This document shows, piece by piece, positions 8,413-24,000 of a stretch of DNA of 24,000 nucleotides (the stretch's first letter is position 1; each line of letters begins with the position of its first letter). Source of the DNA: Pannonibacter carbonis. GTDB taxonomy: Bacteria; Pseudomonadota; Alphaproteobacteria; Rhizobiales; Stappiaceae. A program made the translations under genes and the position numbers. The stretch covers positions 114,182 to 138,181 of the forward strand of contig NZ_PUDR01000001.1 in the NCBI RefSeq assembly GCF_003012935.1, given 5' to 3'. The notes under the pieces were generated by a model. That model was not told the DNA's origin, made no database searches, and saw nothing but the letters and a program-made list of their open reading frames with translations.

Positions 8413-8526
8413 CCGGTCTCCCCCCGTTTCTGCAAATACCTAAGCCGCCCCAACAGCAAAGGCAATGAGTGCGCAAAAAGCATCCGTCCTCTTCCGCACT
8501 GCACCATCCGGCTTTCACGCCAATGA

Positions 8527-8576: not shown

Positions 8577-8603
8577 AACCCGGCAGCGGAACAGGCACTC
8601 CCC

Positions 8604-9842
8604 TTGAGCGACAGCCCGAGCATTTCCCGGCAGTTTTCCCTGTGCACGGTCATGGAGACGATCGTGCATTGCGGGCCGATCTCGCGGGCCAGCATCGCCA
8701 AGCAGACCGGCCTGTCAAAGCAGACGATCTCCGAGATTGCCCGCCAGCTCGAGGAAGACGGCTGGATCCGGGAGACTGGTCGCACCAGCGGTCACGTCGG
8801 CCGCACCGCCATCACCTATGAAATCGTCCCCGAGGCCTCCTGCATCGCTGCCATCGATCTTGGTGGACGCAAGCTGCGCGCCGCCATTGCAGATCTCGCC
8901 GGCAATGTGCTGGCGGAAGTCACCGAGCCGACCGACCTGCGCGGCGGCCGCCATGTGGTCGAGCAGATTGCAAGCCTTGCCCACCGGGCGAGTGCACATA
9001 CCGGCATCCCGTTTGAGAAGGTTCGCCTTGCAATCGTCGGGGTTCCAGGCGCGCCGGACCGCACCACCGGCCGCGTCCTGATGGCACCGAACATTCCCGG
9101 CCTCGATGAATTCGATGTCAGCAGCGCGCTTGCCGAACTGCTCGGCACGGACGTTGTTCTGGAAAACGATGTCAATCTTGCCGTGATCGGCGAACGCTGG
9201 GCGGGAAGCGCAAACGGGATCGATGATCTCGCCTATATCGCCATCGGCACGGGCATCGGCGCCGGTGTCATGGTGGGCGGGGAGCTGGTGCGCGGAGCCG
9301 GCAACGCCGCCGGCGAACTCGGGTTTCTACCCTTCGGCAGCGACCCGTTTGAGCCCGAGTCGCTCAAGGTTGGCGCTCTCGAGCGCGCAACGGCGACCGC
9401 CGGCATCTGTGCCCGGTATCAGGCCCTGACCGGACGCAACGCCGATGTCCCGACGATCTTTGCTGCCGCGTCGGGAGGCCAGGCCGAGGCCGGACGCGTG
9501 CTGAACGAGACGGCACACCATCTGGCTCTCACCATCGCCGTTCTGAGTGCCGTGACCAATCCAAGGCGCGTTGTGCTGGGTGGTTCGATTGGCCGACGGA
9601 TGGAACTGGTCGAACGGATCCGTGCCCTGTTGCCCTTGTGCGTGCCGTTGCCGGTGGAGATCGGTGTGTCGTCGCTGGGCTCGCGGGTCACACTGGTCGG
9701 AGGCGTCGCCATCGGCCTCAGCCATCTTCATTCCGCCCTGTTTTCAGGCGGCGTTCCGGGCGCGCAGATCAGCCTGCCCCCGGCCCGGGTCAGCATCGTT
9801 GCTGGCTCATCAGTCACGCTTCAATCCGGCCCGTTGGCCTGA
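8604..9842 (+). CDS. ROK-family transcriptional regulator (NagC/XylR-like), zinc motif absent
   Basis: 412 aa. N-terminal wHTH (HCGPISRASIAKQTGLSKQTISEIARQLEEDGWI), ROK sugar-kinase-like core (AIDLGGRK, YIAIGTGIGAGVMVGGELVRGAGNAAGELG). A TTG start at 8604 is assumed. The alternative ATG at 8652 would cut into the helix preceding the HTH. Confidence 0.82.
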   Translation: MSDSPSISRQFSLCTVMETIVHCGPISRASIAKQTGLSKQTISEIARQLEEDGWIRETGRTSGHVGRTAITYEIVPEASCIAAIDLGGRKLRAAIADLAGNVLAEVTEPTDLRGGRHVVEQIASLAHRASAHTGIPFEKVRLAIVGVPGAPDRTTGRVLMAPNIPGLDEFDVSSALAELLGTDVVLENDVNLAVIGERWAGSANGIDDLAYIAIGTGIGAGVMVGGELVRGAGNAAGELGFLPFGSDPFEPESLKVGALERATATAGICARYQALTGRNADVPTIFAAASGGQAEAGRVLNETAHHLALTIAVLSAVTNPRRVVLGGSIGRRMELVERIRALLPLCVPLPVEIGVSSLGSRVTLVGGVAIGLSHLHSALFSGGVPGAQISLPPARVSIVAGSSVTLQSGPLA

Positions 9843-9863
9843 ACCCGAGGGAACCGACCCAAG

Positions 9864-11123
9864 ATGACGGACGTTGCTGCCCTTGCCGAGCGCCTGCGCG
9901 CCGCGCTTGATAGTGATCAGGTCATTGCGCTGCTGCGCGGCGCAGTCGCCTGCAATTCAATCACGGGCAACGAGGCCTCCATGGTCGCGTACCTGAAGCC
10001 CGAAATGCAGCGGCTGGGCCTCGCGCCACAGACGGCAGACTTCCAGCCCGGCCGCCCCAACATCTGGGGCGAGCGGAAGGGCACGGGCACCGGTCCGCGC
10101 CTCCTCTTCATGGGGCACACGGACACGGTGCATGTGAAAGGCTGGGCCGAGAAATGGGCCGGGACCGAGCGCGAGAACCCCTTTGGCGGTGCGCTGGTCG
10201 ATGGCGAGATCTGGGGCCGCGGCACCGGTGACCTGAAGGCCGGCATCTGCACCAGCCTCGCCGCCCTCGACCTCCTCGACCGTGCAGGGATCAAGCTTGC
10301 CGGCGATGTCGCCTATGCCTTTGTCGGCGATGAGGAAAGCGGAGAGGAAGGCACCGGCGTCAGCGCGGGCGTCAATGCCTACACGCGGCTGGTCGAGACG
10401 GGCGATGTCGCCCGGCCGGACTTTGCCGTCTATGTCGAACCGACGCAACTCAATGTCTTGACCGCCCAGATGGGTTTCTTCATCGCCGATCTGACCCTGA
10501 CCGGAAGATCAGCCTATTTCGGCGTGCCGGAGCAAGGGATCGACGCCTTGAAGGCCGCGCACCGGCTGCAGACGGCCCTGTTTGCCCATTCGGATGCAAT
10601 CGCCATCCGGTCGGAGCATCCGCTTGTTGGCCGCGCCTTCCTGCTGATCACGCATCTGGAGGCCGGCGGATACATTGCCGTTCCGGGAACCTGCCGGCTC
10701 TCCCTGATCCGCAAGCTGCTGCCCGGCGAAAGCCTCGACACGGCGGTGGCGGAGTTCGAGGCCGCGGCCCGTGGCAGCCTGACAGGGACGACTGTCCACC
10801 TCGACATCCGCTATCCGGCAGGCCGGGACCACGCCTTTGGCGGTTCCCCCGCCGAGATTGATCCCGAACACCCGGCCGCCCTGCTCATGTCCGCAGCCAT
10901 TGGCGCGGAGATGCAGGGCAAGGGTGCCATCGCCGGAGCACCCTACTGGTCGGAATCGCCTTTCCTGATCAACCGCCTTTCCTGCCCGGCGATCTATTGC
11001 GCCCCGGGCGACATCAGCAACTGCCACACCCTCGAGGAACGAGTGAACGTGGCGGACTACCTCAGCGGCATCGTCGCCTTTGCCAGCTTCATTGCCGCCT
11101 ATTGCGGTGTTCAGGGCACCTGA
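9864..11123 (+). CDS. M20-family metallopeptidase/deacylase (ArgE/DapE/ACY1-like)
   Basis: 419 aa. Metal and catalytic motifs MGHTDTV, GRGTGDLKAG and GDEESGEEG. RBS GAGGGAA. Lies 21 bp after the ROK gene. Confidence 0.85.
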   Translation: MTDVAALAERLRAALDSDQVIALLRGAVACNSITGNEASMVAYLKPEMQRLGLAPQTADFQPGRPNIWGERKGTGTGPRLLFMGHTDTVHVKGWAEKWAGTERENPFGGALVDGEIWGRGTGDLKAGICTSLAALDLLDRAGIKLAGDVAYAFVGDEESGEEGTGVSAGVNAYTRLVETGDVARPDFAVYVEPTQLNVLTAQMGFFIADLTLTGRSAYFGVPEQGIDALKAAHRLQTALFAHSDAIAIRSEHPLVGRAFLLITHLEAGGYIAVPGTCRLSLIRKLLPGESLDTAVAEFEAAARGSLTGTTVHLDIRYPAGRDHAFGGSPAEIDPEHPAALLMSAAIGAEMQGKGAIAGAPYWSESPFLINRLSCPAIYCAPGDISNCHTLEERVNVADYLSGIVAFASFIAAYCGVQGT

Positions 11124-11174
11124 CACCACCCCAGGCCATATGGGCCCAGTCGTACAGTAACGGGAGGAACTGAC

Positions 11175-12230
11175 ATGACATTGACCAAGCTTCTCGGCGC
11201 GCTCTCCGTAGCCGCCCTTCTTGCATCCACGCCGGCCCTGGCCCAGACCACGGGACCAAAAGGCGAAGCCGCCGTCGCCACCAGCACCGTCACTGTCAGC
11301 GATGCCCAGGCGGCCAAGCTGAAGACGGGCGGCCACAAGGCAGCGCTTCTCTGGCATGACCAGTCCGATTTCGTGAACGCTGTCACCGCCGGTGCCTCGG
11401 ACGAATTCGCCCGCCTCGGCATCGAGGTCGTCGCCACCACCAGCGCCGGTTTCGACGCGGCCAAGCAGCGCTCCGACATCGAGACGGCGCTCGCCAAGAA
11501 GCCGAACATCGTGCTCGCCCTGCCGCTGGATCCGGTCACCTCGGCTGCTGCCTTCAAGGAAGCCAAGGATGCGGGCGTGAAGCTTGTCTTCCTTTCCAAC
11601 CTGCCGAAGGACTACGTCCATCCGGCCGACTATGCGGCCATCGTCACCGACGACCTGTTCCAGATGGGCAAGCAGGCCGCCGACGCGCTGGCCAAGTCCA
11701 TGGGCGGCAAGGGCACGGTCGGCTGGATCTATCACGACGCCGACTATTACGTGACCAACCAGCGCGACAACGCCTTCAAGTCGACCATCGAGAAGGACTA
11801 TCCGGACATCAAGATCGTCGCGGAAGAGGGCATTTCCGACCCGGCCCGCGCCGAGGAAATCGCCAACGCGATGCTTCTGAAGAACCCGGATCTCGGCGGC
11901 ATCTATGTCACCTGGGCCGGTCCGGCCGAAGGCGTGCTCGCAGCGCTCCGCGCCAACGGCAACAAGACCACCAAGATCGTCACCCTCGACCTGTCCGAGC
12001 CGATCGCCCTCGACATGGTGAAGGGCGGCAATGTCGCCGCCATTGTCGCCGATGAGGCCTATGAACTCGGCCGCGCCATGGCGGCCACCGGCGCGCTGGC
12101 CCTGCTGGGCGAACAGACCCCGGCCTTCATCGTCGCCCCGGCGGTCACCGCCAATGCCGACACGGTCGCCGAAGCCTGGCAGCAGTCGCTGCGCAAGGAC
12201 GCTCCCAAGAGCGTGCTGACCGCGAAGTAA
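11175..12230 (+). CDS. Sugar-type ABC transporter periplasmic substrate-binding protein (type I PBP, RbsB/FrcB-like)
   Basis: 351 aa. Signal peptide MTLTKLLGALSVAALLASTPALAQ. RBS GGGAGGA. Resembles the Peripla_BP family. Confidence 0.85.
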   Translation: MTLTKLLGALSVAALLASTPALAQTTGPKGEAAVATSTVTVSDAQAAKLKTGGHKAALLWHDQSDFVNAVTAGASDEFARLGIEVVATTSAGFDAAKQRSDIETALAKKPNIVLALPLDPVTSAAAFKEAKDAGVKLVFLSNLPKDYVHPADYAAIVTDDLFQMGKQAADALAKSMGGKGTVGWIYHDADYYVTNQRDNAFKSTIEKDYPDIKIVAEEGISDPARAEEIANAMLLKNPDLGGIYVTWAGPAEGVLAALRANGNKTTKIVTLDLSEPIALDMVKGGNVAAIVADEAYELGRAMAATGALALLGEQTPAFIVAPAVTANADTVAEAWQQSLRKDAPKSVLTAK

Positions 12231-12240
12231 GCTCACGACT

Positions 12241-12270
12241 GCGCCCGGCCACCGTCGCGCGGTCGGGTGC
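12241..12270 (+). other. Stem-loop after the binding-protein gene
   Basis: GCGCCCGGCC (12241-12250) pairs with GGUCGGGUGC (12261-12270). That gives 10 bp including two G-U pairs, with a 10-nt loop and no U tract. It begins 11 nt after the TAA stop. Confidence 0.35.
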
Positions 12271-12335
12271 ATGTCCCATCCCTGACAACAGGCCTTCAAC
12301 GGGCCCGGCAAGGCCGGTTCGGAAACGGAACACCC

Positions 12336-13313
12336 ATGTCCACCAATACGTCCCTGAAGCCGGTCGCCCGGGTGCCGCTCCTGTCGCGTCTGGAGCCGCA
12401 GCAATTCGTGCTCTACCTCGGCTTTGCCGCGATCTTCCTGTTCTTCGCCGTCACTCTGGCCGATGACGGCTTCCTGACGACGCGCAATCTCTCCAACATC
12501 GTGCTGCAGACGGCGCCGGCCACCGTGATGGCCATCGGCCTCGTCTTCGTGCTCTCCGCCGGCGAGATCGACCTGTCCTTCGGCTCCATCGTCGCCGTCT
12601 CAGCGCTGGCCGCCGCTGTCGTCATGCAGGAACACTCGCTGTTCCTGGGCGTGCTTGCAGGGCTCGGCGCAGGACTTGCCATCGGCTGGCTCAATGGCAT
12701 GCTCGTCGCCTATCTTGGCCTGCCGTCCTTCCTGGTCACGCTGGCGACCATGGGTCTGTTTGCGGGACTGGCACGCTCGATGACGAACCTGCGCTCAATC
12801 CCCGTTGTCGACGACGCCTTTACCGGCTTCTTTGGCTCAGGCAGCCTGTTCGGCATTCCGTCACTCATCCTTTGGACGCTTGGCGCAGTCATCGTTGGCC
12901 ACATAATTTACCGCCAGACCCGCTTCGGCGCGCATGTGGTGGCCACTGGCGACAATGCCCGCGCCGCCCAGGTCTCCGGCATCAAGGTGCCGCGTCTGCG
13001 CCTCACCGTCTTGATGCTAAGCGGGCTCTGCGCCGGCCTTGCCGGGCTGCTCTATGCCGGCCGCCTGCAGGCCGCCAAATACACGCTCGGCGAAAGCGAC
13101 CTGATGACGGTGATCGCCGCGGTCATCGTCGGCGGCACGGCGCTGAATGGCGGCAAGGGAACTGTTGTCGGTGCGCTCGTCGGATCGCTGCTGATGGGCA
13201 TGCTCAACAACGGCCTCATCCTCATGGGCCTGTCCGTGTCCGACCAGATGATCGTGCGCGGCCTCATCATCCTCGTTGCCGTCGCCATCTCGCTGCGCGA
13301 CACAACCCGATAG
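12336..13313 (+). CDS. Sugar-type ABC transporter permease (RbsC/FrcC-like)
   Basis: The ORF 12267-13313 is trimmed to the ATG at 12336 (MSTNTSLKPV...), preceded by GGAAACGGAA. Multi-TM protein with a branched-chain/ribose permease-family look (GEIDLSFGS..., GGTALNGGKGTVVG). Confidence 0.85.
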   Translation: MSTNTSLKPVARVPLLSRLEPQQFVLYLGFAAIFLFFAVTLADDGFLTTRNLSNIVLQTAPATVMAIGLVFVLSAGEIDLSFGSIVAVSALAAAVVMQEHSLFLGVLAGLGAGLAIGWLNGMLVAYLGLPSFLVTLATMGLFAGLARSMTNLRSIPVVDDAFTGFFGSGSLFGIPSLILWTLGAVIVGHIIYRQTRFGAHVVATGDNARAAQVSGIKVPRLRLTVLMLSGLCAGLAGLLYAGRLQAAKYTLGESDLMTVIAAVIVGGTALNGGKGTVVGALVGSLLMGMLNNGLILMGLSVSDQMIVRGLIILVAVAISLRDTTR

Positions 13314-13327
13314 AAGGAACCCGGATC

Positions 13328-14533
13328 ATGTTTCTCGACCTTCTGCGCCGCCGCAACCCGGCCTTCGTCGAAGCGGCCATGGCCCTGCACCGGGCCGGAC
13401 ATATCCCCGCGAACGCCTATGTGCTCGACCTCGACACGGTGGAAGACAATGCCCGCCTGTTCAAGGCAGAAGCCGACCGCCATGGCCTGAAGGTCTTCGC
13501 CATGACCAAGCAGGTCGGGCGCAACAGCGGCTTCTCGCGCGCCGTCCTGCGCGGCGGCATCGACCGGGCGGTTGCCGTCGACATGGCCTGCGCCATCGCC
13601 TGCCACAAGGCGGGCCTGAAGACCGGGCACCTCGGCCACCTCGTCCAGGTGCCGCGCTTCGAGGCCGCCATGGCCGCCCGCGACCTTCAGCCGGACTACT
13701 GGACGGTTTTCAGCGACGACAAGGCGGTGGAAGCTGCGTCCGCCGCCAAGGCCGCCGGTCGCACGCAGAACCTGATGGCGCGCATCCACACCGCAGGTGA
13801 CACGTTCTACAAGGGGCATGAAGGCGGCTTCCCGGCCGAAGATATTGCCGCTGTGGCTGACCGCATCGACGCGCTGGACGGCGCCCGCTTCGCCGGCCTC
13901 ACCTCCTTCCCGGCGCTGCTCTATGACAACGCCACACGCACGGTGAACCCGACACACAATCTCACGACCCTCGCCCGCGCTGCGGATGCCCTGCGCAAGG
14001 GCGGCCGCAGTGAGGTAGAGATCAACGCGCCAGGAACCACCTCTTCCGCCGTGCTGCACCACCTGGCCAATGCCGGCGCAACCCAGTGCGAACCGGGCAA
14101 CGGCCTGCACGGCACCACGCCGCTGCATGCGCTGGAAGACCTGCCGGAGCGTCCGGCCGTGCTTTACCTTACTGAGGTCTCGCATCTGCACCAGGGCCGC
14201 GCCTACTGCTTCGGCGGCGGTCTCTATATCGATCCGGTCTTCCCGGACTACGGCCTCAAGGCCCTTGTGTCGGCAGAGCCCACAGTGGCAGACGCAGCGC
14301 TGCGCCCGGTCGAGATCCCCCCGCCCTCGGCCATCGACTATTACGGCATGATCGACTGTGCCGGGCATCCGGCACCCAGGAGCGGCGACACCGTCGTCTT
14401 CGGCTTCCGCGGCCAGGCCTTCGTCAAGCGCGGCTACATCGTCGGCGTTCGAGGCATCGCCTCCGGCACGCCGACGGTCGAGACCATCCAGAACATCTTC
14501 GGTCAGGCCGAGCCCTGGCCAAACCTGAGCTGA
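13328..14533 (+). CDS. YhfX-like protein, alanine-racemase-N (fold-type III PLP) domain, predicted amino-acid racemase family
   Basis: The real gene starts at the ATG at 13328 (RBS GAAGGAA); the upstream part of ORF 12872-14533 overlaps the permease out of frame. MFLDLLRRRNPAFVEAAMALH...FAMTKQVGRN...GHLGHLVQVP resembles E. coli YhfX as I recall it. The Lys in AMTKQ is the likely PLP lysine. Confidence 0.78.
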   Translation: MFLDLLRRRNPAFVEAAMALHRAGHIPANAYVLDLDTVEDNARLFKAEADRHGLKVFAMTKQVGRNSGFSRAVLRGGIDRAVAVDMACAIACHKAGLKTGHLGHLVQVPRFEAAMAARDLQPDYWTVFSDDKAVEAASAAKAAGRTQNLMARIHTAGDTFYKGHEGGFPAEDIAAVADRIDALDGARFAGLTSFPALLYDNATRTVNPTHNLTTLARAADALRKGGRSEVEINAPGTTSSAVLHHLANAGATQCEPGNGLHGTTPLHALEDLPERPAVLYLTEVSHLHQGRAYCFGGGLYIDPVFPDYGLKALVSAEPTVADAALRPVEIPPPSAIDYYGMIDCAGHPAPRSGDTVVFGFRGQAFVKRGYIVGVRGIASGTPTVETIQNIFGQAEPWPNLS

Positions 14534-14538
14534 CCGCC

Positions 14539-15303
14539 ATGACAGACAAGACCGAGACTTCCCTCACCCATGGCCGGCCGATGCTGGAACTGACCAACAT
14601 CCACAAGGCCTTTGGCGGCGTCGTCGCCATCGAGGACTTTTCCCTGACCGTCCGCGCCGGCGAGATCGTGGCTCTCGTCGGCGACAATGGCGCCGGCAAG
14701 TCGACGCTGATCAAAATCATCTCCGGCGTCTACACGCCCACCTCCGGCTCCATCGCGCTGGACGGCGCTCCGGTGCAGTTCTCCGATGCGAGTTCTGCAA
14801 GAGCGAGCGGCATCGAGGTGGTCTATCAGGATCTGGCGCTGGCCGACCATCAGCCGGTCTACATGAACCTGTTCCTCGGCCGCGAGAAGACGAAGCCCCC
14901 CTTCGGCCTTCTCGACCGCAAGGCGATGATGCAGGAAACGCAGGCACTGGTGGACGAACTGGACGTGCGCATCCCCTCCGCCCGGGCCACCATCAAGGAT
15001 CTCTCCGGCGGCCAGCGCCAGGGCATCGCCATCGCAAGGGCCACGCACTGGGCCAAGAAGCTGGTGCTGCTCGACGAGCCGACGGCCGCGCTCGGCGTTG
15101 CGGAAACGGCCAAGGTGGAGAAGATCGTCGAGGCCCTGCGCGCCCGGGACCTCGCCATCCTGATCATCAGCCACAGCCTCGATCAGGTCTTCCGCCTCTC
15201 CGATCGTATCTGCGTATTGCGCCGGGGCAAGCAGATCGGCGTGCGCGAGACGGCAAAGACCGACAAGAACGAGATCGTCTCGATGATCACCGGCGTTCAC
15301 TGA
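14539..15303 (+). CDS. ABC transporter ATP-binding protein, single-cassette sugar type (FrcA-like)
   Basis: 254 aa. Walker A GDNGAGKST, signature LSGGQRQ, Walker B LVLLDEPT. Confidence 0.9.
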   Translation: MTDKTETSLTHGRPMLELTNIHKAFGGVVAIEDFSLTVRAGEIVALVGDNGAGKSTLIKIISGVYTPTSGSIALDGAPVQFSDASSARASGIEVVYQDLALADHQPVYMNLFLGREKTKPPFGLLDRKAMMQETQALVDELDVRIPSARATIKDLSGGQRQGIAIARATHWAKKLVLLDEPTAALGVAETAKVEKIVEALRARDLAILIISHSLDQVFRLSDRICVLRRGKQIGVRETAKTDKNEIVSMITGVH

Positions 15304-15315: not shown

Positions 15316-15346
15316 GAGGGCGCAACGCCGGTGTTGCGCCCTCTTT
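15316..15346 (+). terminator. Terminator hairpin between convergent operons
   Basis: gagggcgcaac (15316-15326) and gttgcgccctc (15333-15343) form a perfect 11-bp stem with a 6-nt loop. It is followed on the plus strand by TTTCGCT, a short U tract. It lies 13 nt after the ATPase stop and abuts the TAG of the convergent VWA gene. Confidence 0.6.
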
Positions 15347-15348: not shown

Positions 15349-17625
15349 CTAGCGTGTCAGCCGCAGGTAGAGCTTGGGCAGCCGGTCGGGGAGCGCGGTG
15401 ACGCGGTCGATCTGGATCACGTTCTGGCGTCCGAAAATTCGCGACAGATAGGTGTCTCCCGTGCGGTCCAGCCCGACGCAGAACACGTCGATCCCGGCAC
15501 CGGCTGCTTCCTGCACCGCCTTGCGCGCATCCTCCACAAGATGCTTCGGATCGCTCACGTCAATGTCCGACGGTTCGCCGTCGGTGATGATCAGCACCAG
15601 CCGGCGGTGCGTCGCCATCGGCTGGATGTCGCGCGTCGCCATGCGCAGGGCCCCGCCCATGCGGGTCGACAGGCCCGGCCTCAGCCCCGCCAGCCGCGCC
15701 TTGGCCCGCGTGTCGAAGGCCTCTCCGAACCGCTTGATGCGATGATAGCGCAGGTCCTCCCGACCATCGGAGTGGAAGGCGGCAAGGGCGAAAGGATCGC
15801 CGGCCTCGGCCATCGCAGCGGCCAGATGGGCTGCCGCCTCGCGAAGGATGGAGAATACCGAGACCGGCGAACCGTCGATCGTGTCCTTGGTGGATTCGGA
15901 AATATCCAGGAGCACGAGAACCGAAAGATCGCGGGAATTGAGCGTGCGGGTCTCGTAGACCCGCGTGTCGGGGGCGTGCCCCCCGGCGAGATCAATGCGC
16001 GCGCGCAGGGCGGCCTCCAGGTCGAGCCGGTCGCCTTCGGCCTGACGGCGCAGCCGCACCGGCTGGCCCGCGCGCGCCTGCCGGATCAGCGCGCTGGTAC
16101 GCCGCACCAGGTCCGGACGCTCTGAGAGGAGCCGGTCGATGATGGCCGCCGGCGCCATTCTCGGCGGATGCTCCATCACCTGCACCCAGTCCGGCCGGTG
16201 CCGATGGCTGACCGCATCCCATTCCGGCAGCCGGCACAGCGGGAACGCCGCCTCGGGATCGGCTTCGGTCAGCCGCACCGGACTGACATCGTCACCGCCC
16301 TCCTCGGTCCGGCGGCGGTCTGGCTCGTCGGTCTGCGTTTCCCGCTGCTCGATGCGCACGGAAATGGAGATTTCGTCCGGAGCCCCCTGCTCCTGGTCCG
16401 GCAGGTCGAACTGCCACAGACCCTGATTGTCATCGCGGTAGAGCGGCTGCACCGCATAGGTCTTGGAATTGAACTGCAGCCGCATCTGGCCGAGATCATT
16501 GCCGAGCCCGCTGCCGATCCGCCGGAGCACATCCGGATCGTCCCAGCTGTCCCGCGCCTCGCGGAAGGCCGCGCGTCCCTTCTGCACGAAGGGATCGGGG
16601 TCCTCGTGGTCGGGGTCTGCCAGGACCCGTGCCAGCCGGGCCAGCAGCGCCTCCGCCGTCCCCCCTTCGGCCGGCGCGGTATGGAACGGCAGCCACAGCC
16701 GGTTGAGCCCAGGGTACTGGGCAAGCGCCAGATGCTCGGCCCGCGCATCCTCAAGGAGCGAAATCAGCGCGATCTGCAACGGCTTCAGCGCTTTGGCCGG
16801 ACGGGGTCGTCCGGAATGGGCCAGATGCGCGCCGATGTGCAGCGCTGCTGCCTTCATCAGGGTGACGGCCGCCTCCCCCCGCACGCCGCGATAGGCATCG
16901 GGCAGGAACAGGATGCGACCATCGAAGCTGGACCGGCGGGCGGTCTGGGCCCCGCCCGCCGGTGAAGGGCGGATCACGGGCTCGACCGACCAGAGCGCCG
17001 TAACCAGACCCTTGAGACGTGGCTCCAGCCGGGCGAGCGGCACATCGGCCGCCTCGCGCAGGAGGAGCGTTTCGGCCCGCGGATCGCGGAAGGAAAACAG
17101 GGCCTGCCGCAGGTCTTCCCGGCCTGCCGCCAGGTCGATCAGCGCCCCGACAAAGCCGGCAAGACCGCGAGCGCCCAGCCGGCCAAGCAGATGATCGGTC
17201 TCACCTGCAAACGCGGCGAGGCTTTCCGGCGCGCGCTCGGCCACATCGGCGACCACCGCAAGCCAGGCCGAGAGATCATCGCCATCGCTCAGCCAGCGCA
17301 GCGCGCGCGGCACCGCTGCAAGGACCAGCGTTGCATCGCCGCCACGCCCACGTTGGCCAAGGTCGCTGGCCTGCTCCAGAAGCCGGATCAGCGGCTCCGC
17401 ACCGGCCCGGTCGAACAGCGCCGATGCCGCCGCCGCCAGCGCCCGCCGCTGCAGGCTCGCAGGCTGGAACCGGTCGCAGAAGGTGGCGGCAGCCAACTCG
17501 AGCGCGGCCCGATCCTCCGCCGGCATGCGCGCCGTCAATCCGGGCAGCAGCCGATCCGTCGCGGATCCGGCAGACGCCGCAAGGGTCAGCGGGCCTGGCC
17601 TGTCCGCCTCTGCCAGTTGGGTCAT
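15349..17625 (-). CDS. VWA-domain protein, CbbO/NorD-like partner of the CbbQ-type ATPase
   Basis: The ORF 15349-17655 is trimmed to the ATG at 17625, with RBS GAAGGTG, 14 bp after the ATPase stop. The C-terminal VWA domain has an intact MIDAS: VLLDISESTKD ... GLSTRMGGAL ... LIITDGEPSD. The long helical N-terminal region and acidic linker match the CbbO/NorD architecture. Confidence 0.85.
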   Translation of the reverse strand: MTQLAEADRPGPLTLAASAGSATDRLLPGLTARMPAEDRAALELAAATFCDRFQPASLQRRALAAAASALFDRAGAEPLIRLLEQASDLGQRGRGGDATLVLAAVPRALRWLSDGDDLSAWLAVVADVAERAPESLAAFAGETDHLLGRLGARGLAGFVGALIDLAAGREDLRQALFSFRDPRAETLLLREAADVPLARLEPRLKGLVTALWSVEPVIRPSPAGGAQTARRSSFDGRILFLPDAYRGVRGEAAVTLMKAAALHIGAHLAHSGRPRPAKALKPLQIALISLLEDARAEHLALAQYPGLNRLWLPFHTAPAEGGTAEALLARLARVLADPDHEDPDPFVQKGRAAFREARDSWDDPDVLRRIGSGLGNDLGQMRLQFNSKTYAVQPLYRDDNQGLWQFDLPDQEQGAPDEISISVRIEQRETQTDEPDRRRTEEGGDDVSPVRLTEADPEAAFPLCRLPEWDAVSHRHRPDWVQVMEHPPRMAPAAIIDRLLSERPDLVRRTSALIRQARAGQPVRLRRQAEGDRLDLEAALRARIDLAGGHAPDTRVYETRTLNSRDLSVLVLLDISESTKDTIDGSPVSVFSILREAAAHLAAAMAEAGDPFALAAFHSDGREDLRYHRIKRFGEAFDTRAKARLAGLRPGLSTRMGGALRMATRDIQPMATHRRLVLIITDGEPSDIDVSDPKHLVEDARKAVQEAAGAGIDVFCVGLDRTGDTYLSRIFGRQNVIQIDRVTALPDRLPKLYLRLTR

Positions 17626-17638
17626 CCCGGCCACCTTC

Positions 17639-18448
17639 TTACTGGCACGCCGCAATGGCGTCCGTCAGGCTGGCCCGCAGATCCGGGTCGTCGGTGATCG
17701 GCAGGACCAGCGCCATCTGGCAGGCGGCGGTGAGCGAGATGCCGCGCGCCATCAGGCGCCCGGCCTGGATCAGCATGCGCGTCGAGGCGCCTTCATCAAG
17801 GCCATGGCCCTTCAGGTTGCGCGAGCGGTCGGCGACCTTCACGAGAAGCGTGGCCGTGGCCTCGTCGATGCCGGCCTCGCGCGCCACGATCCGGGCCTCG
17901 CGTGCGGCATCGGGATAGGTGAAGTCGAGGCCAACGAAGCGCTGCTTGGTGGATTCCTTCAGATCCTTCAGCACGCTCTGGTAGCCCGGGTTGTAGGAGA
18001 TCACGAGCTGGAAGTCGGGATGCGCCCGCACCAGCTCGTTCTTCTTGTCGAGCGGCAGGATGCGCCGGTCGTCGGTGAGCGGATGGATGACCACGGTCGT
18101 GTCCTGCCGCGCCTCGACGATCTCGTCGAGATAGCAGATCGCGCCGTGGCGCACGGCCAGCGTCAGCGGACCGTCGTGCCAGACGGTGCCGTCCGCATCG
18201 AGCAGGAACCGCCCGACAAGGTCGGAAGCGGTCATGTCCTCGTGGCAGGCGACGGTCACCAGCGGCCGGCCGAGCCGCCAGGCCATATGCTCGATGAACC
18301 GCGTCTTGCCGCAGCCGGTCGGCCCCTTGATCATGACCGGCTGGCGCAGGGCATGGGCCGCTGTGAAGAGGTCGATCTCGTCCGCCTGCGGGGCGTAGAA
18401 GGGTTCGTCGGCAAGGAAATACGGCGCAAGGACCATCGTCTGGCTCAC
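17639..18448 (-). CDS. CbbQ/NirQ/NorQ/GvpN-family MoxR AAA+ ATPase
   Basis: 269 aa. Walker [12 protein letters not shown], Walker [12 protein letters not shown], CbbQ-type C-terminal helical domain. GTG start at 18448; an alternative ATG lies at 18436. Confidence 0.9.
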
Positions 18449-18463
18449 TCTGGATGCAATCTT

Positions 18464-18502
18464 TGGAAAAAAGAGGCCGGCGGCGGATGGGACGCCGCCG
18501 GC
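18464..18502 (-). terminator. Rho-independent terminator immediately downstream of amiE
   Basis: Minus-strand reading: TGA, 7 nt, GCCGGCGGCG, ucccauc, CGCCGCCGGC, CUCUUUUUUCC. That is a perfect 10-bp all-GC stem (18476-18485 / 18493-18502) followed by a run of six U (A-run 18467-18472 on the plus strand). Confidence 0.8.
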
Positions 18503-18509
18503 AAGTCCG

Positions 18510-19550
18510 TCAGCGGTGGACAGGGGTCTTTTCGTTCGGGATGCCGTCGATCGGGCACTCGGACGTTCCGGCGGTGGACCGGGTCATGGCCTCGACCATT
18601 TCGCGGGTGCCTTCCGGATCACTGATCCACTTCTGGTAGAAGTCATAGGGGCAGGCCGCGACGCCCTTGGAGCTTTCGCCGGAATTGATCATGCCGGTGT
18701 AGCCACGGTGAACGAGCTTGTAGAGGTGGTTCTGCGACTGCATGTTGCGCCGCGCGTCACGGATCATCGAGACGGAGAGCTGCGCATATTGGATGCCGTA
18801 ATCCTCCTCGCCGCACTCACCGAGCGTCCGGCCGTCGAAGCCGACGATGGCGGAATGGCCGAAGTAGGAATAGACGCCGTCAAAGCCGGCCGCATTGGCC
18901 ACCGCCACATAGACGTTGTTGGCGAAGGCCATGGCCTTGGAGATGATGATCTGCTGCTCCTTGGCCGGGTACATGTAGCCCTGGCAGCGGACGATCAGCT
19001 CGGCGCCCTTCATGGCACAGTCGCGCCAGATTTCCGGATAGTTGCCGTCATCACAGATGATCAGCGAGATCTTCATGCCCTTCGGGCCTTCCGACACGTA
19101 GGTGCAGTTGCCCGGATACCAGCCCTCGATCGGCACCCACGGCATGATCTTGCGGTACTTCTGGACGATCTCGCCCTTGTTGTTCATCAGGATGAGGGTG
19201 TTGTAGGGCGCCTTGTTCGGGTGCTCCTCGTGTCGCTCGCCGGTGAGCGAGAACACGCCCCAGACATTCGCCTTGCGGCAGGCTTCCGCGAAGATGGCGG
19301 TTTCCTCGCCCGGCACCTGCGAGGCGGTCTCGTACATCTCCTTGCTGTCGTACATGATGCCGTGGGTCGAGTATTCCGGGAAGATCACGAGATCCATGCC
19401 CGGCAGCCCGATCTTCATGCCCTCGACCATCGCCGCGATCTTGCGGGCATTCTCGAGCACTTCGGCCTTGGTATGAAGGCGCGGCATCTTGTAGTTGACC
19501 ACCGCCACGCCGACGGTGTCATTGCTGCTGGAAATATCGCCGTGATGCAT
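18510..19550 (-). CDS. amiE: Aliphatic amidase (acylamide amidohydrolase), nitrilase superfamily
   Basis: 346 aa. Near-collinear with Pseudomonas aeruginosa AmiE as I recall it ([25 protein letters not shown]..., [40 protein letters not shown]). The catalytic triad is at the canonical positions E59 (FPEY), K134 (YRKIMPW) and C166 (IICDDG). RBS GGAGGAA. Confidence 0.95.
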
Positions 19551-19611: not shown

Positions 19612-20310
19612 TCACACCGCCATGTGGCGGTGGATGAGGTCGTCGGTCAGCCCTGCGATAGGTCCGGATGCGACCACGCGTCCCTTTTCCAGGATCGCGA
19701 AGTCGGTGCTGGCGCGCCGTGCGAACACAATGTTCTGTTCCACGAGCACGATGGTGATGCCGAAACGCCGGTTCAGCGACAGGATCGCCTCCTCGATCAG
19801 TTCGACAATGTTGGGCTGGATGCCCTCCGCCGGCTCATCCAAGAGGATGATGCGCGGGTCGGTCATCAGCGCCCGGGCGATGGCCAGCTGTTGCTGCTGG
19901 CCGCCCGAAAGGTTGCCTCCGGCGCGGCCACGAAACTCGCGCAGGATCGGGAACATGTCGAAGACGAGCGCCTCCAGCTCCTTGCCTCGGTCGCTGGTGC
20001 GGGCAAAGCCGCCGAGCTGCAGGTTCTCGTAGACGGTGAAACGCGGCAGGATGCCTCGTCCCTGCGGCACATAGCCAATGCCGGCGCGGGCTCGTTGATG
20101 GGTCGCCATCCGGTTGATGTCCTGACCATCGAGGCGGATCTCTCCCTCGGTCCGGTCGAGGAGGCCAAGCATGGCGCGCATCAGCGTCGTCTTGCCGACG
20201 CCATTGCGGCCAAGCACCGACAGGAAGGCGCCCGTACCGACGCTCAGGTCGATACCCTGCAGGGCACGCGAGTTGCCGTAGAAGCCGTCGAGTTTGCTGA
20301 TCTCAAGCAC
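19612..20310 (-). CDS. urtE: Urea/short-chain-amide ABC transporter ATP-binding protein UrtE-like
   Basis: 232 aa. Walker [10 protein letters not shown] and the signature [15 protein letters not shown] typical of UrtE/LivF-type subunits. Its GTG start overlaps the urtD end by 8 nt. Confidence 0.88.
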
Positions 20311-21052
20311 CGTGGATCCCCATCGAACCGAGGTAGACTTCGCGCACGCGCTCGTTGGCGCTGATCTCGTCCGCCGTGCCTTCCGCCAGCAGCGAGCCCT
20401 GGTGCATCACCGAGAGGACGTCGCCGATGTCGCGCACGAAGCCCATGTCGTGCTCGACGACGATGATCGTGTGCTTGCCCTTGAGGCGGTTGCAGATGTC
20501 GGCCGTCTTGCGCGTTTCCTGCGCCGTCATGCCGGCAGTCGGCTCGTCGAGCAGGATGAGCTCGCTGTCCTGGGCCAGCAGCAGGGCAATCTCGAGCCAC
20601 TGCGTCTGGCCATGCGACAGGTTGGCCGCCGGCTCGTCGAGCTGGTCGGCAAGCCCCACGAACTCCGCCAGATGCTCAAGTCCGTCGCCGGAGCGCCCGC
20701 GCCGGAAGAGGTTCGCGAAAACACCGGGCTGACGGCACAGCGCAACCTCCAGGTTTTCGCGCACCGACAGCTGGCGGAACACGCTGGGGACCTGGAACTT
20801 GCGGCCAACCCCGGCTCGCGCGATCTCGAAGTCTTCCATTGTGGTCAGATTTTTGTCGCCCAGCCGGATCTCGCCGCTGACTGCCCGGGTCTTGCCGCAG
20901 ATGAGGTCGAGCGCAGTGGTCTTGCCCGCACCATTGGGGCCGATCAGGCAACGCAGCTCACCCTTGTTGACGCTCAGGTTGAGATTGTTGACCGCGCGAA
21001 AGCCGTTGAAGCTGACGCAGAGATCGACAAGTTGCAGATGCACGGCGCTCAT
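20303..21052 (-). CDS. urtD: Urea/short-chain-amide ABC transporter ATP-binding protein UrtD-like
   Basis: The ORF 20303-21334 is trimmed to the ATG at 21052 (MSAVHLQLVDLCVSFNGF...), which overlaps the urtC stop as ATGA. Walker A GPNGAGKTT, signature LSHGQTQWLE, Walker B ILLDEPT. Confidence 0.88.
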   Translation of the reverse strand: MSAVHLQLVDLCVSFNGFRAVNNLNLSVNKGELRCLIGPNGAGKTTALDLICGKTRAVSGEIRLGDKNLTTMEDFEIARAGVGRKFQVPSVFRQLSVRENLEVALCRQPGVFANLFRRGRSGDGLEHLAEFVGLADQLDEPAANLSHGQTQWLEIALLLAQDSELILLDEPTAGMTAQETRKTADICNRLKGKHTIIVVEHDMGFVRDIGDVLSVMHQGSLLAEGTADEISANERVREVYLGSMGIHGA

Positions 21053-22218
21053 GACTTGTCTCCCGGTTTGGTGGCGGACACCTCGGCGAGCGCAGGACGC
21101 AGGGCAGCGCCCTCGCTGCGCCGGGATGACTGCGCGAGGCGATTGCGAATGAGCGTGACAAGGCCGGCAAGGCCATTGGGCAGGAACAGCACGACCAGCA
21201 CGAAGGTCACGCCCATCACCAGCGTCCAGCTGTCGAGGAAGGCTTCGCTTTCGGAGAGGGCGCCCTGCATCCCGGCAATCAGGATTGCGCCGATGAGGGC
21301 TCCCACGAGGCTTTGGCGACCACCCACGGCACACCAGATGACGATGGACAGCGACAGCGGCACATCGAGGAATGTCGGCGAGGCGAACTCCATCACCACG
21401 GTGTAGAGCATGCCTGCCAGACCGGCGACGGCAGCCGAAACAGACATGGCGAGGATCTTGAAGGCCGCGACGTCGTAGCCGAAGAAGCGCACCCGCCGTT
21501 CGTCATCGCGGATCGCCTGGAAGATCAGCCCGGCCTTGCTGCGGATCACGGCCAGACAGGCAAACAGCGACACGGTCAGGCAGGTGGCCACGAGATAGTA
21601 GGTACTGGCCGAGTAGGAATCGAACACGAAGCCGAAGAGTTCCAGCTGAGCAAGGTCCGTGATGCCGTTGAAACCGCCCGTGTAGCTCTGCAGGTCGATG
21701 ATCAGCAGGTTGCCAACGACCAGCGCGGCCAGCGTGATGATGGCTACAAAGACGCCGGTGACGCGGCCGCGGAACATGAACCAGCCAAGCAGCGCCGCAA
21801 TCAGCACCGGAACGAGGATCCCGGCGATGATCGCAAATGTCATCGACTGGAACGGCACCCAGGCGAGCGGCAGTCGTTCCACGTTGTTCCAGACCATGAA
21901 GTCCGGCAGGCCCTCGGAGCCGGTGTGCACCGGAACCGTGCGCAGCTTCAGCGCCATGGCCATGCAATAGGAACCAAGCCCAAAGCTCAGCGCCTGACCG
22001 AGGTTGAGGATCCCGGCATAGCCCCAGGACAGGGCCAGCGCCATCGCCACCATACCCAGCACCAGATAACGGGCGATGCGGTTCAGCAGGAAGTCGTCGT
22101 CTATGCCGAGCGGCACCACGAAGATCAGCAGGCAGACTACGGCATAGGCGGCAATCTGCAGGCGGCCGTTGAGGACGGACTCCGATCGTCTTGAGGGAGA
22201 AAGAGACACACGTGTCAT
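21049..22218 (-). CDS. urtC: Urea/short-chain-amide ABC transporter permease UrtC-like
   Basis: The ORF 21049-22332 is trimmed to the ATG at 22218, 4 nt after the urtB stop. LivM/UrtC-type polytopic permease. Confidence 0.85.
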   Translation of the reverse strand: MTRVSLSPSRRSESVLNGRLQIAAYAVVCLLIFVVPLGIDDDFLLNRIARYLVLGMVAMALALSWGYAGILNLGQALSFGLGSYCMAMALKLRTVPVHTGSEGLPDFMVWNNVERLPLAWVPFQSMTFAIIAGILVPVLIAALLGWFMFRGRVTGVFVAIITLAALVVGNLLIIDLQSYTGGFNGITDLAQLELFGFVFDSYSASTYYLVATCLTVSLFACLAVIRSKAGLIFQAIRDDERRVRFFGYDVAAFKILAMSVSAAVAGLAGMLYTVVMEFASPTFLDVPLSLSIVIWCAVGGRQSLVGALIGAILIAGMQGALSESEAFLDSWTLVMGVTFVLVVLFLPNGLAGLVTLIRNRLAQSSRRSEGAALRPALAEVSATKPGDKS

Positions 22219-22222
22219 GGGA

Positions 22223-23092
22223 TCAGCTCCGGACCTTGGTGACGAACAGGCCCTGCGGGCGGAAACGGATGAGGACGATGATCGCAAGCAGCACCAGCGC
22301 CTTGGCGATCGTGTCGTTCGACACATAGGCAAGCGAGCCGGACATCTGGCCGAGCAACGCAGCGCTGGCTACCGTTCCGAACAGGCTCTGCACGCCGCCG
22401 AGGACGACAACGAAGAACGCATCGACCACATAGGCTGCGCCCATTTCCGGACTCACGCTCTTCAGCGGCGCCACCAGCGCACCAGCGAGACCGGCAAGGC
22501 CCGCGCCGTAGGCAAAGGTCAGGCTGTAGACCTTGTCGGCATTGACGCCGAAGCACATGGCGGTGTTGCGATCCTGCACGACAGCACGCAACCGCGTGCC
22601 GAAGGAGGTTCGGAACATCAGTGCCCACGTCGCGGCAAACAAGGCGGCGACAAACAGGAAGACAAAGACGCGGTAGGACGAAACACCGACGCCAAGGATC
22701 GAGACTGTCCCGGAGAAAATCTCCGGCATGCCGACGTAGCGCAGCTCTCCGCCCGCCGTCAGGCGGATGACCTGTTGCAGCACCACGCCGATGCCCCAGG
22801 TCGCCAGCAACGTGTCGAGTGGCCGGGCGTACAGGAACCGGATCACCCCGCGCTCAGTCGCCCAGCCGAAGGCGCCAACCCCGATAAAGATGAAGACGAG
22901 GCTGGACAGGAGATCCAGCCCGAACACGCTGTTGAGCGCCCAGGCTCCATAGGCCCCGAGCATGACGAACTCGCCATGGGCCATGTTGATGACGCCCATG
23001 GAGCCGTAGATGATCGCCAGACCCAGCGCGACAAGCAGCAGGATGGAACCGATGCTGAGGCCGGTGATGACTTGTTGAAGAATGAAATCCAC
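22223..23092 (-). CDS. urtB: Urea/short-chain-amide ABC transporter permease UrtB-like
   Basis: The ORF 22223-23323 is trimmed to the GTG at 23092 (VDFILQQVITGLSIGSILLLVALGLAIIYGSMGVINMAHGE...), preceded by GAGGGAG with a 5-nt spacer. The longer ORF would run through the intergenic hairpin. LivH/UrtB family. Confidence 0.82.
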   Translation of the reverse strand: MDFILQQVITGLSIGSILLLVALGLAIIYGSMGVINMAHGEFVMLGAYGAWALNSVFGLDLLSSLVFIFIGVGAFGWATERGVIRFLYARPLDTLLATWGIGVVLQQVIRLTAGGELRYVGMPEIFSGTVSILGVGVSSYRVFVFLFVAALFAATWALMFRTSFGTRLRAVVQDRNTAMCFGVNADKVYSLTFAYGAGLAGLAGALVAPLKSVSPEMGAAYVVDAFFVVVLGGVQSLFGTVASAALLGQMSGSLAYVSNDTIAKALVLLAIIVLIRFRPQGLFVTKVRS

Positions 23093-23127
23093 GGGCGTGC
23101 TCCCTCGCCAGCCGCATTGCCTCTCGA

Positions 23128-23175
23128 AAGCCCCTGTTTCCCCGGCGCTGAAGAGCGCCGGGGAAACAGGGGCTT
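23128..23175 (-). other. 48-nt perfect hairpin between the binding-protein gene and urtB
   Basis: aagcccctgtttccccggcgct (23128-23149), gaag loop, agcgccggggaaacaggggctt (23154-23175). The stem is 22 bp with no mismatch, and 15 of 22 pairs are G-C. No U tract follows on either strand. Confidence 0.85.
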
Positions 23176-23198
23176 GTCTTTCGCAGGAGAACGTTCGA

Positions 23199-24000
23199 TC
23201 AGCTTTCCTTGAGGCCGTCCGCCGTGCACATCTGGCCGGGATAGGCAGCGTACGGGTTCGGCGCGATCCATTCGGGGAAGCTCTCCAGCACCTCGAACTG
23301 GCCGTTGGACTTCGCCATGGCAATCTTTGGCCAGAGGTAAGTGTGCAGGTTCTCCGGCTCGATGCGGATGCGGCCCTGCGGAGCGATCAGTTCCTGGCCC
23401 TTGACGGCCTCGCGGATGGTGGGCGGGTCGATCTCGCTGCCGGCCAGCTTCTCGACAGCCTGCTTGAACAGGTAGACCTGGAAGTAGGATGGCTCGGACA
23501 CGAAATGGGTGACCTTGTCGTCGCCCCAGCGGCGCTTGTAGGCCGCCACGAACTTCTCGTTTTCCGGCGACTGGTGCACCATGAAGTAAGGCGCGGACGT
23601 GAAATGTCCGGCTGCCGCTTCACCACCCATGGCCGCGACCTCGTTTTCCGACGTCGTCAGGCTGGCCATCGGCATCTTTTCCGGATCGAGACCGGCCGCG
23701 CGGTACTGGCGATGCAGGGCCACGACGGAATCGCCGACAACGGTCGAGAAGATGACATTCGGCTGCGTGCTCTGGATCTTGTTGATGACCGAGGAGAACT
23801 CGGAATGGCCAAGCGGCACGTATTCCTCGTTCACCACCTCACCGCCGAGCTTCTCAAGCAGCTTCTTGCAGTAGTTGTTCTCTTCCTTCGGATAGATGTA
23901 GTTCGAACCGATCAGGTAGAACTTCTTGCCAAATTTCTGCACCAGCCAGGGGATGAACTCGTCCTGCTGCTGGTTCGGCACGGCACCGGTGTAGATCACG
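23199..24000 (-). CDS. urtA: Urea/amide-binding periplasmic protein (UrtA/FmdD/AmiC-like), 5' end outside the window
   Basis: C-terminal 266 aa of a LivJ/UrtA-type binding protein (FYLIGSNYIYPKEENNYCKKLLEKLGGEVVNEEYVPLGHSEFSSVINKI...). The reading frame stays open to the window edge. Stop is TGA at 23199-23201. Confidence 0.82.
   Translation of the reverse strand, partial: VIYTGAVPNQQQDEFIPWLVQKFGKKFYLIGSNYIYPKEENNYCKKLLEKLGGEVVNEEYVPLGHSEFSSVINKIQSTQPNVIFSTVVGDSVVALHRQYRAAGLDPEKMPMASLTTSENEVAAMGGEAAAGHFTSAPYFMVHQSPENEKFVAAYKRRWGDDKVTHFVSEPSYFQVYLFKQAVEKLAGSEIDPPTIREAVKGQELIAPQGRIRIEPENLHTYLWPKIAMAKSNGQFEVLESFPEWIAPNPYAAYPGQMCTADGLKES

Follow-up and report, generated by a model that had tools for sequence, protein, structure and literature searches.

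A CbbQ/CbbO-type motor and adaptor encoded with aliphatic amidase: a candidate amidase activase

Introduction

What would a machine of the kind that reactivates Rubisco do beside an amidase? The question is raised by a 24,000-nt stretch of DNA from Pannonibacter carbonis (the window), in which the aliphatic amidase gene amiE is followed on the same, minus strand by two genes that we call Q and O: Q encodes a MoxR AAA+ ATPase of the CbbQ type, and O encodes a CbbO-type protein that ends in a VWA domain. To our knowledge, the one role described for CbbQO is that of a Rubisco activase, and for NorQD that of a maturation factor of nitric oxide (NO) reductase. A reading of the locus made from the letters alone (the sequence-only reading) had suggested that the pair acts on the amidase, which would be a new client class for the family. 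The comparative evidence described here supports that suggestion, and includes a feature that the reading had not foreseen, a His-Arg tail on AmiE.

Papers and reviews on CbbQO and NorQD in the searchable literature make no mention of amidases. For a Pseudomonas veronii plasmid, a 2026 paper mentioned that the amiE-amiC-amiR operon includes an AAA/CbbQ_C gene and a NorD-like one. In the literature searched, which left subscription journals outside, we found no earlier description of how widely the genes are linked, of the relation to full-length CbbO, of AmiB-type ATPases as alternates of the pair or of the AmiE His-Arg motif.

Results

Q and O resemble CbbQ and CbbO along their whole lengths

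The product of amiE is an aliphatic amidase (EC 3.5.1.4) of the nitrilase superfamily, identical in sequence to WP_106751334.1 of P. carbonis. It matches the NCBIfam aliphatic amidase equivalog over its full length (721 bits against a cut-off of 427) and the solved AmiE structures 2plq and 2uxy with 635-661 bits, and a check of the sequence bore out the catalytic residues E59, K134 and C166 that had been read in it.

Q displays the composition of a CbbQ subunit: it is a MoxR protein with the Pfam domains AAA_5 (3.9e-34) and CbbQ_C (3.9e-31) and with intact Walker A (GPTGCGKT) and Walker B (YLDE) motifs, in agreement with the sequence-only reading. Its best matches among solved structures are CbbQ proteins (6l1q of Acidithiobacillus, 405 bits; carboxysomal 5c3c, 397 bits), followed by NorQ at 336 and 320 bits. 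Q is 74% identical to the Rubisco-linked CbbQ of Cereibacter and equally close to the amiE-linked Q of other orders, and a large-database search with Q returned only unnamed or automatically named proteins of 74-100% identity, with no AmiB among them. The 269 residues and 61-bp gap first read for Q hold for the open reading frame (ORF) 17639-18448 if it is begun at the GTG at 18448. However, homologues of Q are 265 residues long, so the true start is probably the ATG at 18436, and the gap between amiE and Q is then 73 nt.

O starts at an ATG at 17625, preceded by GAAGGTGG, and this ATG stands 13 nt past the TAA of Q and not 14 as first counted. The 758 residues, C-terminal VWA domain and intact MIDAS (an adhesion site dependent on metal ions) described earlier were all confirmed. 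We compared the pair with the cbbL-cbbS-cbbQ-cbbO locus of Cereibacter pORIO1, a carboxysome-linked cbbQ-cbbO locus of Nitrobacter and the norCBQD locus of Agrobacterium. O and the Cereibacter CbbO share 35% identity across 712 residues, and O has what characterizes CbbO, namely a length near 770 residues, a C-terminal VWA domain, a perfect MIDAS and a CbbO-type N-terminal region. NorD matches O only over residues ~455-758, by profile and by tblastn alike, and the N-terminal match is insignificant, which means that the likeness to NorD does not run the whole length of the protein. No nor genes are present in the window, unlike the Agrobacterium locus. By sequence, then, the pair is a member of the CbbQ/CbbO family and not of the NorQ/NorD family, and no Rubisco gene adjoins it in the window or in any amiE-linked locus with annotated neighbours; this speaks against the concern, raised with the original proposal, that Q/O might be a stray pair from one of those two systems.

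In the AlphaFold2 model of O (mean predicted local distance difference test score 80), residues 12-212 form a helical N-terminal domain and residues 217-400 a middle domain; then come a disordered acidic linker (409-454) and a beta finger (461-485), and residues 490-758 make up the VWA domain. A fold search with the whole model was dominated by the VWA domain and gave no information on the N-terminal and middle domains. The finger and VWA domain superpose on the NorD VWA domain from the cryo-electron microscopy structures of NorQD (template modeling score 0.76-0.78, 32-34% identity), and for this reason the published arrangement, in which the finger sits in the pore and the linker is stretched, probably applies to Q/O as well. 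The MIDAS residues D574, S576, S578, T654 and D682 do not vary among 74 amiE-linked O proteins and are the same in CbbO and NorD, and MIDAS mutants of CbbO lose activase function (PMC4660213). A second motif, H263, H267, D293, R295 and E297 of the middle domain, is invariant in the 74 amiE-linked O proteins and the two CbbO references and absent from NorD.

Many amiE-linked O proteins are short (~560-660 residues) and without the N-terminal helical domain (L084:8906-10651; L096:7911-9896; P0256, P0261, P0267 and others), which implies that residues 12-212 are dispensable for the association with amiE. We also placed 237 O-family sequences in a neighbour-joining tree with NorD as its root. The tree is star-like: it groups the two bona fide CbbO proteins in a small clade and does not resolve the amiE-linked O proteins as a single one. 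That the latter are a monophyletic sister group of CbbO is hence no claim of ours, since the tree gives no clean sister clades.

amiE, Q and O are encoded together in several classes and on plasmids

If Q and O serve AmiE, the three genes should be found together in other genomes, as the sequence-only reading had asked to see. An alignment of O homologues was scanned against one genome per bacterial species, which returned at least 587 relatives, and we retained the best 80 loci. Seventy of them have amiE next to Q and O; contig ends truncate the other 10. The order is amiE-Q-O with amiE upstream in all but one of the 70, the exception having amiE downstream and on the opposite strand. The linked loci span Alpha- and Gammaproteobacteria (Pannonibacter, Stappia, Kiloniellaceae, Salinarimonas, Bradyrhizobium, Mesorhizobium, Azospirillum, Rhodospirillales and several gammaproteobacterial lineages among them), with identities of 81-100% for AmiE, 67-99% for Q and 41-98% for O. 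Plasmids of Alpha- and Betaproteobacteria and chromosomes of Achromobacter carry the trio as well. A Roseibium plasmid carries it with an ANTAR regulator, a binding protein and urtBCDE; the order on Paraburkholderia pBN4 is amiE, Q, O, AmiC-like binding protein, ANTAR regulator; and plasmids of Shinella, Brucella, Rhizobium, Agrobacterium, Azospirillum and Aestuarium carry it too. Representatives of the O family from other branches of the tree, which is a rough one, likewise adjoin amiE, although the contigs of some are too short to show their context. Altogether, more than 110 loci across classes and plasmids are linked.

As a control for selection bias, metagenome contigs were scanned with AmiE alone as the query and Q/O was scored within 5 kb of amiE; 43 of the 61 informative loci had the pair. 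The adjacency is conserved, then, in all 70 informative loci of the O-seeded sample, in most of the AmiE-seeded sample and on many plasmids. The association is one of neighbourhood and not always one of a shared operon, since in five loci (L106, L114, L134, L138 and L154) Q and O are convergent with amiE, on opposite strands and 0.6-3 kb apart. Several metagenome loci have a His-Arg-tailed amiE inside a urease cluster (urt transporter, amiE, then ureE/F, ureAB, ureC or ureD: L120:6141-9873, L168:8101-9813, L172:6051-6959, L185:1-9710), and most of these have no Q/O within 5 kb. In two loci inside a urease cluster (L185:3835-7232 and L186:81-3478), amiE is followed directly by a 743-residue O, with no Q between them or nearby.

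The adjacency could in principle be incidental, with Q/O serving Rubisco, NO reductase, the Urt transporter or some other client and merely travelling with amiE. The closeness of Q to bona fide CbbQ, which is no lower than to the other amiE-linked Q proteins, is compatible with this, as is the want of clean sister clades in the tree, and a few O-like proteins do occur in other contexts. Two loci (L188:4347-8060, L189:206-3919) encode a 604-residue O-family VWA protein that falls near the CbbO branch, beside HMA, MerT/MerR and Fer4_5/Fer4_18 genes; there is no amiE, Rubisco gene or Q nearby, and this protein may serve yet another client. However, the breadth of the linkage speaks against mere common travel. 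CbbQO is encoded beside cbbLS or cbbM, and no Rubisco genes stand beside the Q/O pair in the window or in the amiE-linked loci with annotated neighbours; the neighbour in every informative related locus is amiE. Only about two thirds of the related loci have Urt genes together with amiE, which speaks against the transporter. Together with a motif in AmiE that tracks the pair, described next, these observations make an incidental adjacency very improbable.

AmiE encoded with Q/O mostly ends in His-Arg

Rubisco large subunits that are encoded with cbbQ and cbbO carry a C-terminal HK/R motif that is absent from other form I and II sequences (Tsai et al. 2015, PMC4660213). In the same study, deletion of one or two residues of this tail, or addition of a single alanine, abolished both activation and stimulation of the ATPase; the last residue could be substituted, the penultimate His could be replaced only partly, and the C-terminal peptide by itself stimulated the CbbQO ATPase, which led the authors to conclude that a specific pocket probably receives the tail. 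His is the preferred penultimate residue. The co-occurrence of the motif with cbbQO has been confirmed, a swap of the last three residues switches activase specificity, and the binding site for the client C-terminus is probably on CbbO (PMC8718961). The CbbL encoded beside cbbQO in our Cereibacter reference ends ...QHR.

We found the same motif in AmiE. The window's amidase terminates ...PVHR, which places an H-K/R motif at the exact C-terminus, where CbbQO clients have it. In the first comparison set, all 71 Q/O-linked AmiE proteins end in His-Arg, while the preceding 4-6 residues differ in both sequence and number (...KTPVHR, ...LEKHR, ...PKTHR, ...DPAHR). In the extended set, position -2 is His in 114 of 114 Q/O-linked proteins, which have 76 distinct tails; across those 76, position -1 is Arg in 72, Lys in three and Ser in one. 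Positions -3 to -7 have an entropy of 2.2-3.0 bits, and the tail varies in length as well. Full-length members of the 90%-identity cluster of the window's AmiE (from Achromobacter, Shinella and Ciceribacter) also end in His-Arg. The body of AmiE is almost the same in Q/O-linked and unlinked proteins, but the extreme C-terminus differs.

The tails of eight full-length plasmid-borne AmiE proteins without an intact Q/O pair differ from His-Arg: EA in Rhodococcus, SH in Halomonas, TR in Burkholderia vietnamiensis, NY in Agrobacterium, RN in Azospirillum oryzae, AK in Methylovirgula, DH in Methylobacterium, and HK in Acidithiobacillus caldus, where only decayed fragments of O are left. The unlinked proteins of Agrobacterium and A. 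oryzae share 87-88% identity with Q/O-linked AmiE, and linked ones share 78-100% among themselves. These two tail-less proteins thus nest within the linked diversity, which suggests that tail and pair disappeared jointly on more than one occasion. On the A. caldus megaplasmid (L083:6594-9524), a decayed O in two fragments and no Q come after amiE, IS elements flank the locus, and AmiE ends ...RHK; retention of the penultimate His suggests that the pair was lost recently.

The AmiE-seeded metagenome sample gives the association in numbers. Forty-three loci have both a penultimate-His tail (HR, HK or HS) and Q/O, 12 have such a tail and no Q/O within 5 kb, six have another ending and no Q/O, and none combines another ending with Q/O (Fisher's exact p = 3e-4 for 61 loci, the tail-less ones not being phylogenetically independent). 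A subgroup of marine metagenome proteins (L121, L122, L123, L130) ends ...EDIKHS, with a more divergent Q (64% identity) and O (31-35%) encoded downstream. These retain the penultimate His and alter the final residue, which is what the mutagenesis of Rubisco would permit.

Beyond the tail, only two positions separate Q/O-linked AmiE from other AmiE. Position 148 (window ~19107-19109) is Asn in 89% of the linked proteins and Asp, Gly or Glu in the others, and position 307 (window ~18630-18632) is Lys in 89% of the linked proteins and mostly Thr or Asp in the others. Both may be secondary contact sites.

The same terminal mark thus appears in the same positional register on a protein of unrelated fold, and only where Q/O is present. 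On these grounds, the strongest that we have for it, AmiE is very probably the client of Q/O and would be engaged as Rubisco is. We infer that O binds AmiE physically, and the middle-domain motif of O, shared with CbbO, is, speculatively, a candidate pocket for the carboxylate of the terminal His-Arg.

A different AAA+ ATPase takes the place of Q/O beside other amiE genes

We also surveyed 66 plasmids that carry amiE. About 30 have O beside amiE. About 21 have, adjacent or within ~3 kb, a ~350-residue ATPase that resembles the D2 module of Clp (AAA_2 + ClpB_D2-small), which we call AmiB-type, and about 10 have no AAA+ partner nearby. The AmiB-type ATPase and Q/O were not seen together on any of the 66. 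AmiB-type plasmids come from Rhodococcus, Arthrobacter, Mycolicibacterium, Parageobacillus, Peribacillus, Halomonas and probably Klebsiella (for example L087:4808-5875 of a Rhodococcus plasmid and L088:7086-8135 of Halomonas; plasmid hits H154-H201). In Halomonas, Parageobacillus and Peribacillus the ATPase gene lies directly downstream of amiE, that is, in the slot occupied elsewhere by Q and O; the order in Halomonas is urtE, amiE, AmiB-type ATPase, fmdA. AmiE proteins linked to an AmiB-type ATPase have no His-Arg end.

These ATPases fit the description of AmiB of Pseudomonas aeruginosa, to which we presume, from the description and not from a comparison of sequences, that they correspond. 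The Clp-like nature of that protein is deduced from the AmiB-type proteins beside amiE elsewhere and from the account reported by Wilson et al. in 1995. As noted in the sequence-only reading, AmiB has no VWA partner. A review calls AmiB, encoded in the amiEBCRS operon, just a putative chaperone.

Q was also considered as an orthologue of P. aeruginosa amiB, and this was rejected: BLASTP against the Rhodococcus AmiB-type protein aligns the P-loop only, and Q has AAA_5 and CbbQ_C in place of the AAA_2 and ClpB_D2-small domains and ~350-370 residues of the AmiB type.

As two different AAA+ systems alternate beside amiE, we would argue that AmiE benefits from ATP-dependent handling, and that such handling is dispensable in some backgrounds, given that ~10 of the plasmids have neither system.

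A terminator-like hairpin separates amiE from Q in the window

The gap between amiE and Q contains a hairpin that resembles an intrinsic terminator (Table 1), which the sequence-only reading had not described. It likely acts as an attenuator that holds expression of Q/O far below that of amiE; with a strong terminator in this position, Q and O must rely on read-through or on an unseen promoter. Applying a strict pattern, we detected a comparable hairpin in just 19 of the 70 related loci, and the idea that the terminator is a general feature of such loci was ruled out.

Surrounding genes

Upstream of amiE and on the same strand are genes for UrtE, UrtD, UrtC, UrtB and a periplasmic binding protein, which bears out the co-oriented amide importer of the sequence-only reading. 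That reading had also found no Rubisco, nor, cox, gvp or chelatase genes in the window, and none is present among its main ORFs. Downstream lies a convergent sugar-type ABC cluster whose end is 45 bp away from the stop codon of O. Of the convergent terminator that had been placed here, an 11-bp inverted repeat between the convergent genes is indeed present, but it has no T-run on the minus strand and for that reason was not flagged by the consensus scan. The rest of the window (95-15303) is unrelated to the finding and encodes, beyond the features in Table 1, an EamA transporter, two IclR regulators, a ROK regulator, an M20 peptidase and the sugar-type ABC transporter.

Table 1 Features of the Pannonibacter carbonis window, in window coordinates.
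Feature	Position	Strand	Description
amiE	18510-19550	minus	aliphatic amidase, 346 aa; nitrilase superfamily; proposed client of Q/O
Last two amiE codons	18513-18518	minus	CAC CGC, His345-Arg346; proposed recognition handle for Q/O
Terminator-like hairpin	18466-18502	minus	10 G-C pairs, 7-nt loop, then T6; consensus scan and reading of the sequence
Q	17639-18436	minus	CbbQ-type MoxR AAA+ ATPase, 265 aa from the ATG at 18436; Pfam AAA_5 + CbbQ_C
O	15349-17625	minus	CbbO-type adaptor, 758 aa, C-terminal VWA; 35% identity to CbbO
O middle-domain motif	16735-16839	minus	H263, H267, D293, R295, E297; two adjacent predicted helices, 250-270 and 282-303
O MIDAS codons	15580-15906	minus	D574-x-S576-x-S578, T654, D682; invariant residues
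Inverted repeat	~15316-15343		11 bp, G+C-rich; between the stop codons of O and of the convergent ABC ATPase gene (14539-15303)
ABC importer	19612-24000	minus	urea/short-amide type, upstream of amiE; NCBIfam UrtB-E equivalogs above cut-offs
UrtE	19612-20310	minus	
UrtD	20303-21334	minus	ORF
UrtC	21049-22332	minus	ORF
UrtB	22223-23323	minus	ORF
Periplasmic binding protein	23199 onward	minus	Peripla_BP_5; runs off the window
TRAP transporter DctMQP	95-3140	minus	
FAD-binding flavoprotein	4193-6079		
YhfX-like PLP-fold protein	12872-14533		ORF; listed start overlaps the permease gene

Discussion

The genes and motifs of the window, the conserved linkage to amiE, the homology to CbbQ and CbbO over their full lengths and the terminal motif of the client together point to AmiE as the protein on which Q/O acts; they say less about what is done to it. 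We consider it reasonably probable, taking the statement as a whole, that Q/O is a machine of the CbbQO type whose client is the hexameric AmiE and whose act is the repair of inhibited enzyme. By analogy with its relatives, such a machine would consist of a MoxR AAA+ hexamer and one VWA adaptor, with the beta finger of O plugged into the Q ring. O would grip AmiE at two points: its VWA MIDAS would hold a surface carboxylate, and a pocket would take in the free C-terminal His-Arg. Hydrolysis of ATP by Q would pull or twist this hold and loosen the AmiE active site, a dead-end occupant of the Cys166 site would be released, and AmiE would again be active. Possible occupants are an acyl or carbamoyl adduct that is hydrolysed slowly and an amide analogue that binds tightly.

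An assembly or maturation chaperone, which would act once on new AmiE subunits to build or lock the hexamer, fits the linkage and tail evidence equally well, as this evidence names the client and not what is done to it. NorQD, to which the pair is related, serves in maturation, and it is plausible that the long C-terminal region of AmiE could be handled while the enzyme assembles. However, AmiE has no metal or cofactor to be inserted, and many amiE genes, including those of the relatives with 87-88% identity, have no adjacent AAA+ partner. The amidases of P. aeruginosa and Geobacillus assemble when expressed in E. coli. The closest homologues of the pair, moreover, are the repair enzymes CbbQ and CbbO and not NorQD. 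We therefore regard assembly as unlikely, though it is the strongest of the alternatives. Repair of inhibited AmiE is favoured over it on account of these nearest relatives, of the missing cofactor and of the closely related amiE genes that stand without a partner; the terminator between amiE and Q adds to this where it occurs, in 19 of 70 loci, since it implies sub-stoichiometric Q/O, as would suit a catalytic repair factor.

A further alternative is that Q/O is a negative regulator or quality-control factor, which would disassemble or inactivate AmiE or pass it to a protease upon a change in amide supply or nitrogen, with His-Arg as the tag. C-terminal dipeptide tags are typical in substrate selection by AAA+ proteins, and expression of the amidase is under tight control, related loci having AmiC-like binding proteins and ANTAR AmiR-like regulators. 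However, the loci examined show no protease gene in consistent linkage, the homologous machine CbbQO is an activator of its client, and co-transcription behind amiE would tie synthesis of Q/O to induction of the amidase, which suits support of the enzyme better than its removal. We judge this alternative improbable, and more so than assembly.

Several observations weigh against repair of AmiE by Q/O. AmiE enzymes without Q/O evidently function, and the pair is hence not essential for activity as such. The 12 metagenome loci in which AmiE has a His-Arg tail yet no Q/O within 5 kb imply either that the pair is encoded elsewhere in the genome or that the tail can exist without it, and the two loci with amiE and O have no adjacent Q. 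The association between tail and pair is partly confounded by shared ancestry, as a single NY-tailed clade accounts for four of the six tail-less loci. Among the AmiE positions that discriminate linked from unlinked proteins, none is a candidate for the acidic surface residue that the MIDAS of O would contact. Finally, slow inactivation of AmiE by urea-like compounds, which the sequence-only reading had brought in as a possible cause of inhibition, is background for which, as regards urea and hydroxyurea, the searchable literature offered no support. The position of amiE beside urea importers and urease genes is in line with this idea in a circumstantial way.

If repair of AmiE by Q/O is correct, AmiE would be a second CbbQO client, chemically unrelated to Rubisco and recognized by the same terminal motif, and repair of metabolic enzymes by MoxR/VWA machines would be more general than Rubisco. 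A homohexameric amidase would be a small, soluble and easily assayed client on which to dissect such machines, including the site that binds the C-terminus. It would also give a testable function to the AAA+ genes of amidase operons, AmiB having been unexplained since 1995, and could be relevant to industrial aliphatic amidases, where loss of activity in turnover is a practical problem. More tentatively, CbbQO-type repair may be a general scheme beyond Rubisco: a portable terminal His-Arg/Lys handle would recruit the motor-adaptor pair to a thiol amidase trapped in dead-end states, for example by urea-like compounds from the adjacent importer, the AmiB-type ATPase would be a convergent answer to the same problem, and H263, H267, D293, R295 and E297 of O, with their CbbO equivalents, would form the pocket for the client C-terminus.

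Comparison with known systems

Of the known systems, AmiB is the one also associated with amidase. AmiB-type proteins are, like Q, AAA+ ATPases encoded beside amiE; unlike Q/O, they belong to a different AAA+ clade and have no VWA partner.

RavA-ViaA and other MoxR/VWA pairs follow the same general principle, in which a MoxR hexamer and a VWA partner work on one dedicated enzyme complex. They represent other MoxR subfamilies with other partners and clients, and none was among the solved-structure matches listed for Q.

NorQ and NorD combine, as Q and O do, a MoxR AAA+ ATPase and a protein with a VWA domain. Q resembles CbbQ more than it does NorQ, however, and the role of NorQD is the insertion of FeB into cytochrome c-dependent NO reductase, whereas AmiE has no metal centre.

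The closest system is the CbbQO Rubisco activase of Acidithiobacillus ferrooxidans and Halothiobacillus neapolitanus. The enzyme linked to Q/O is a nitrilase-superfamily thiol amidase and not Rubisco, and the chemistry of the inhibited state must differ, with a covalent or tight complex at Cys166 in place of sugar phosphates on a carbamylated lysine-Mg site; amiE-linked O proteins, unlike full-length CbbO, often lack the N-terminal helical domain. Nonetheless, the two-gene architecture and the gene order of CbbQO are those of Q/O, CbbO and O share the order of their domains, an intact MIDAS and the middle-domain motif, and the Rubisco served by CbbQO and the AmiE linked to Q/O end in the same H-K/R motif.

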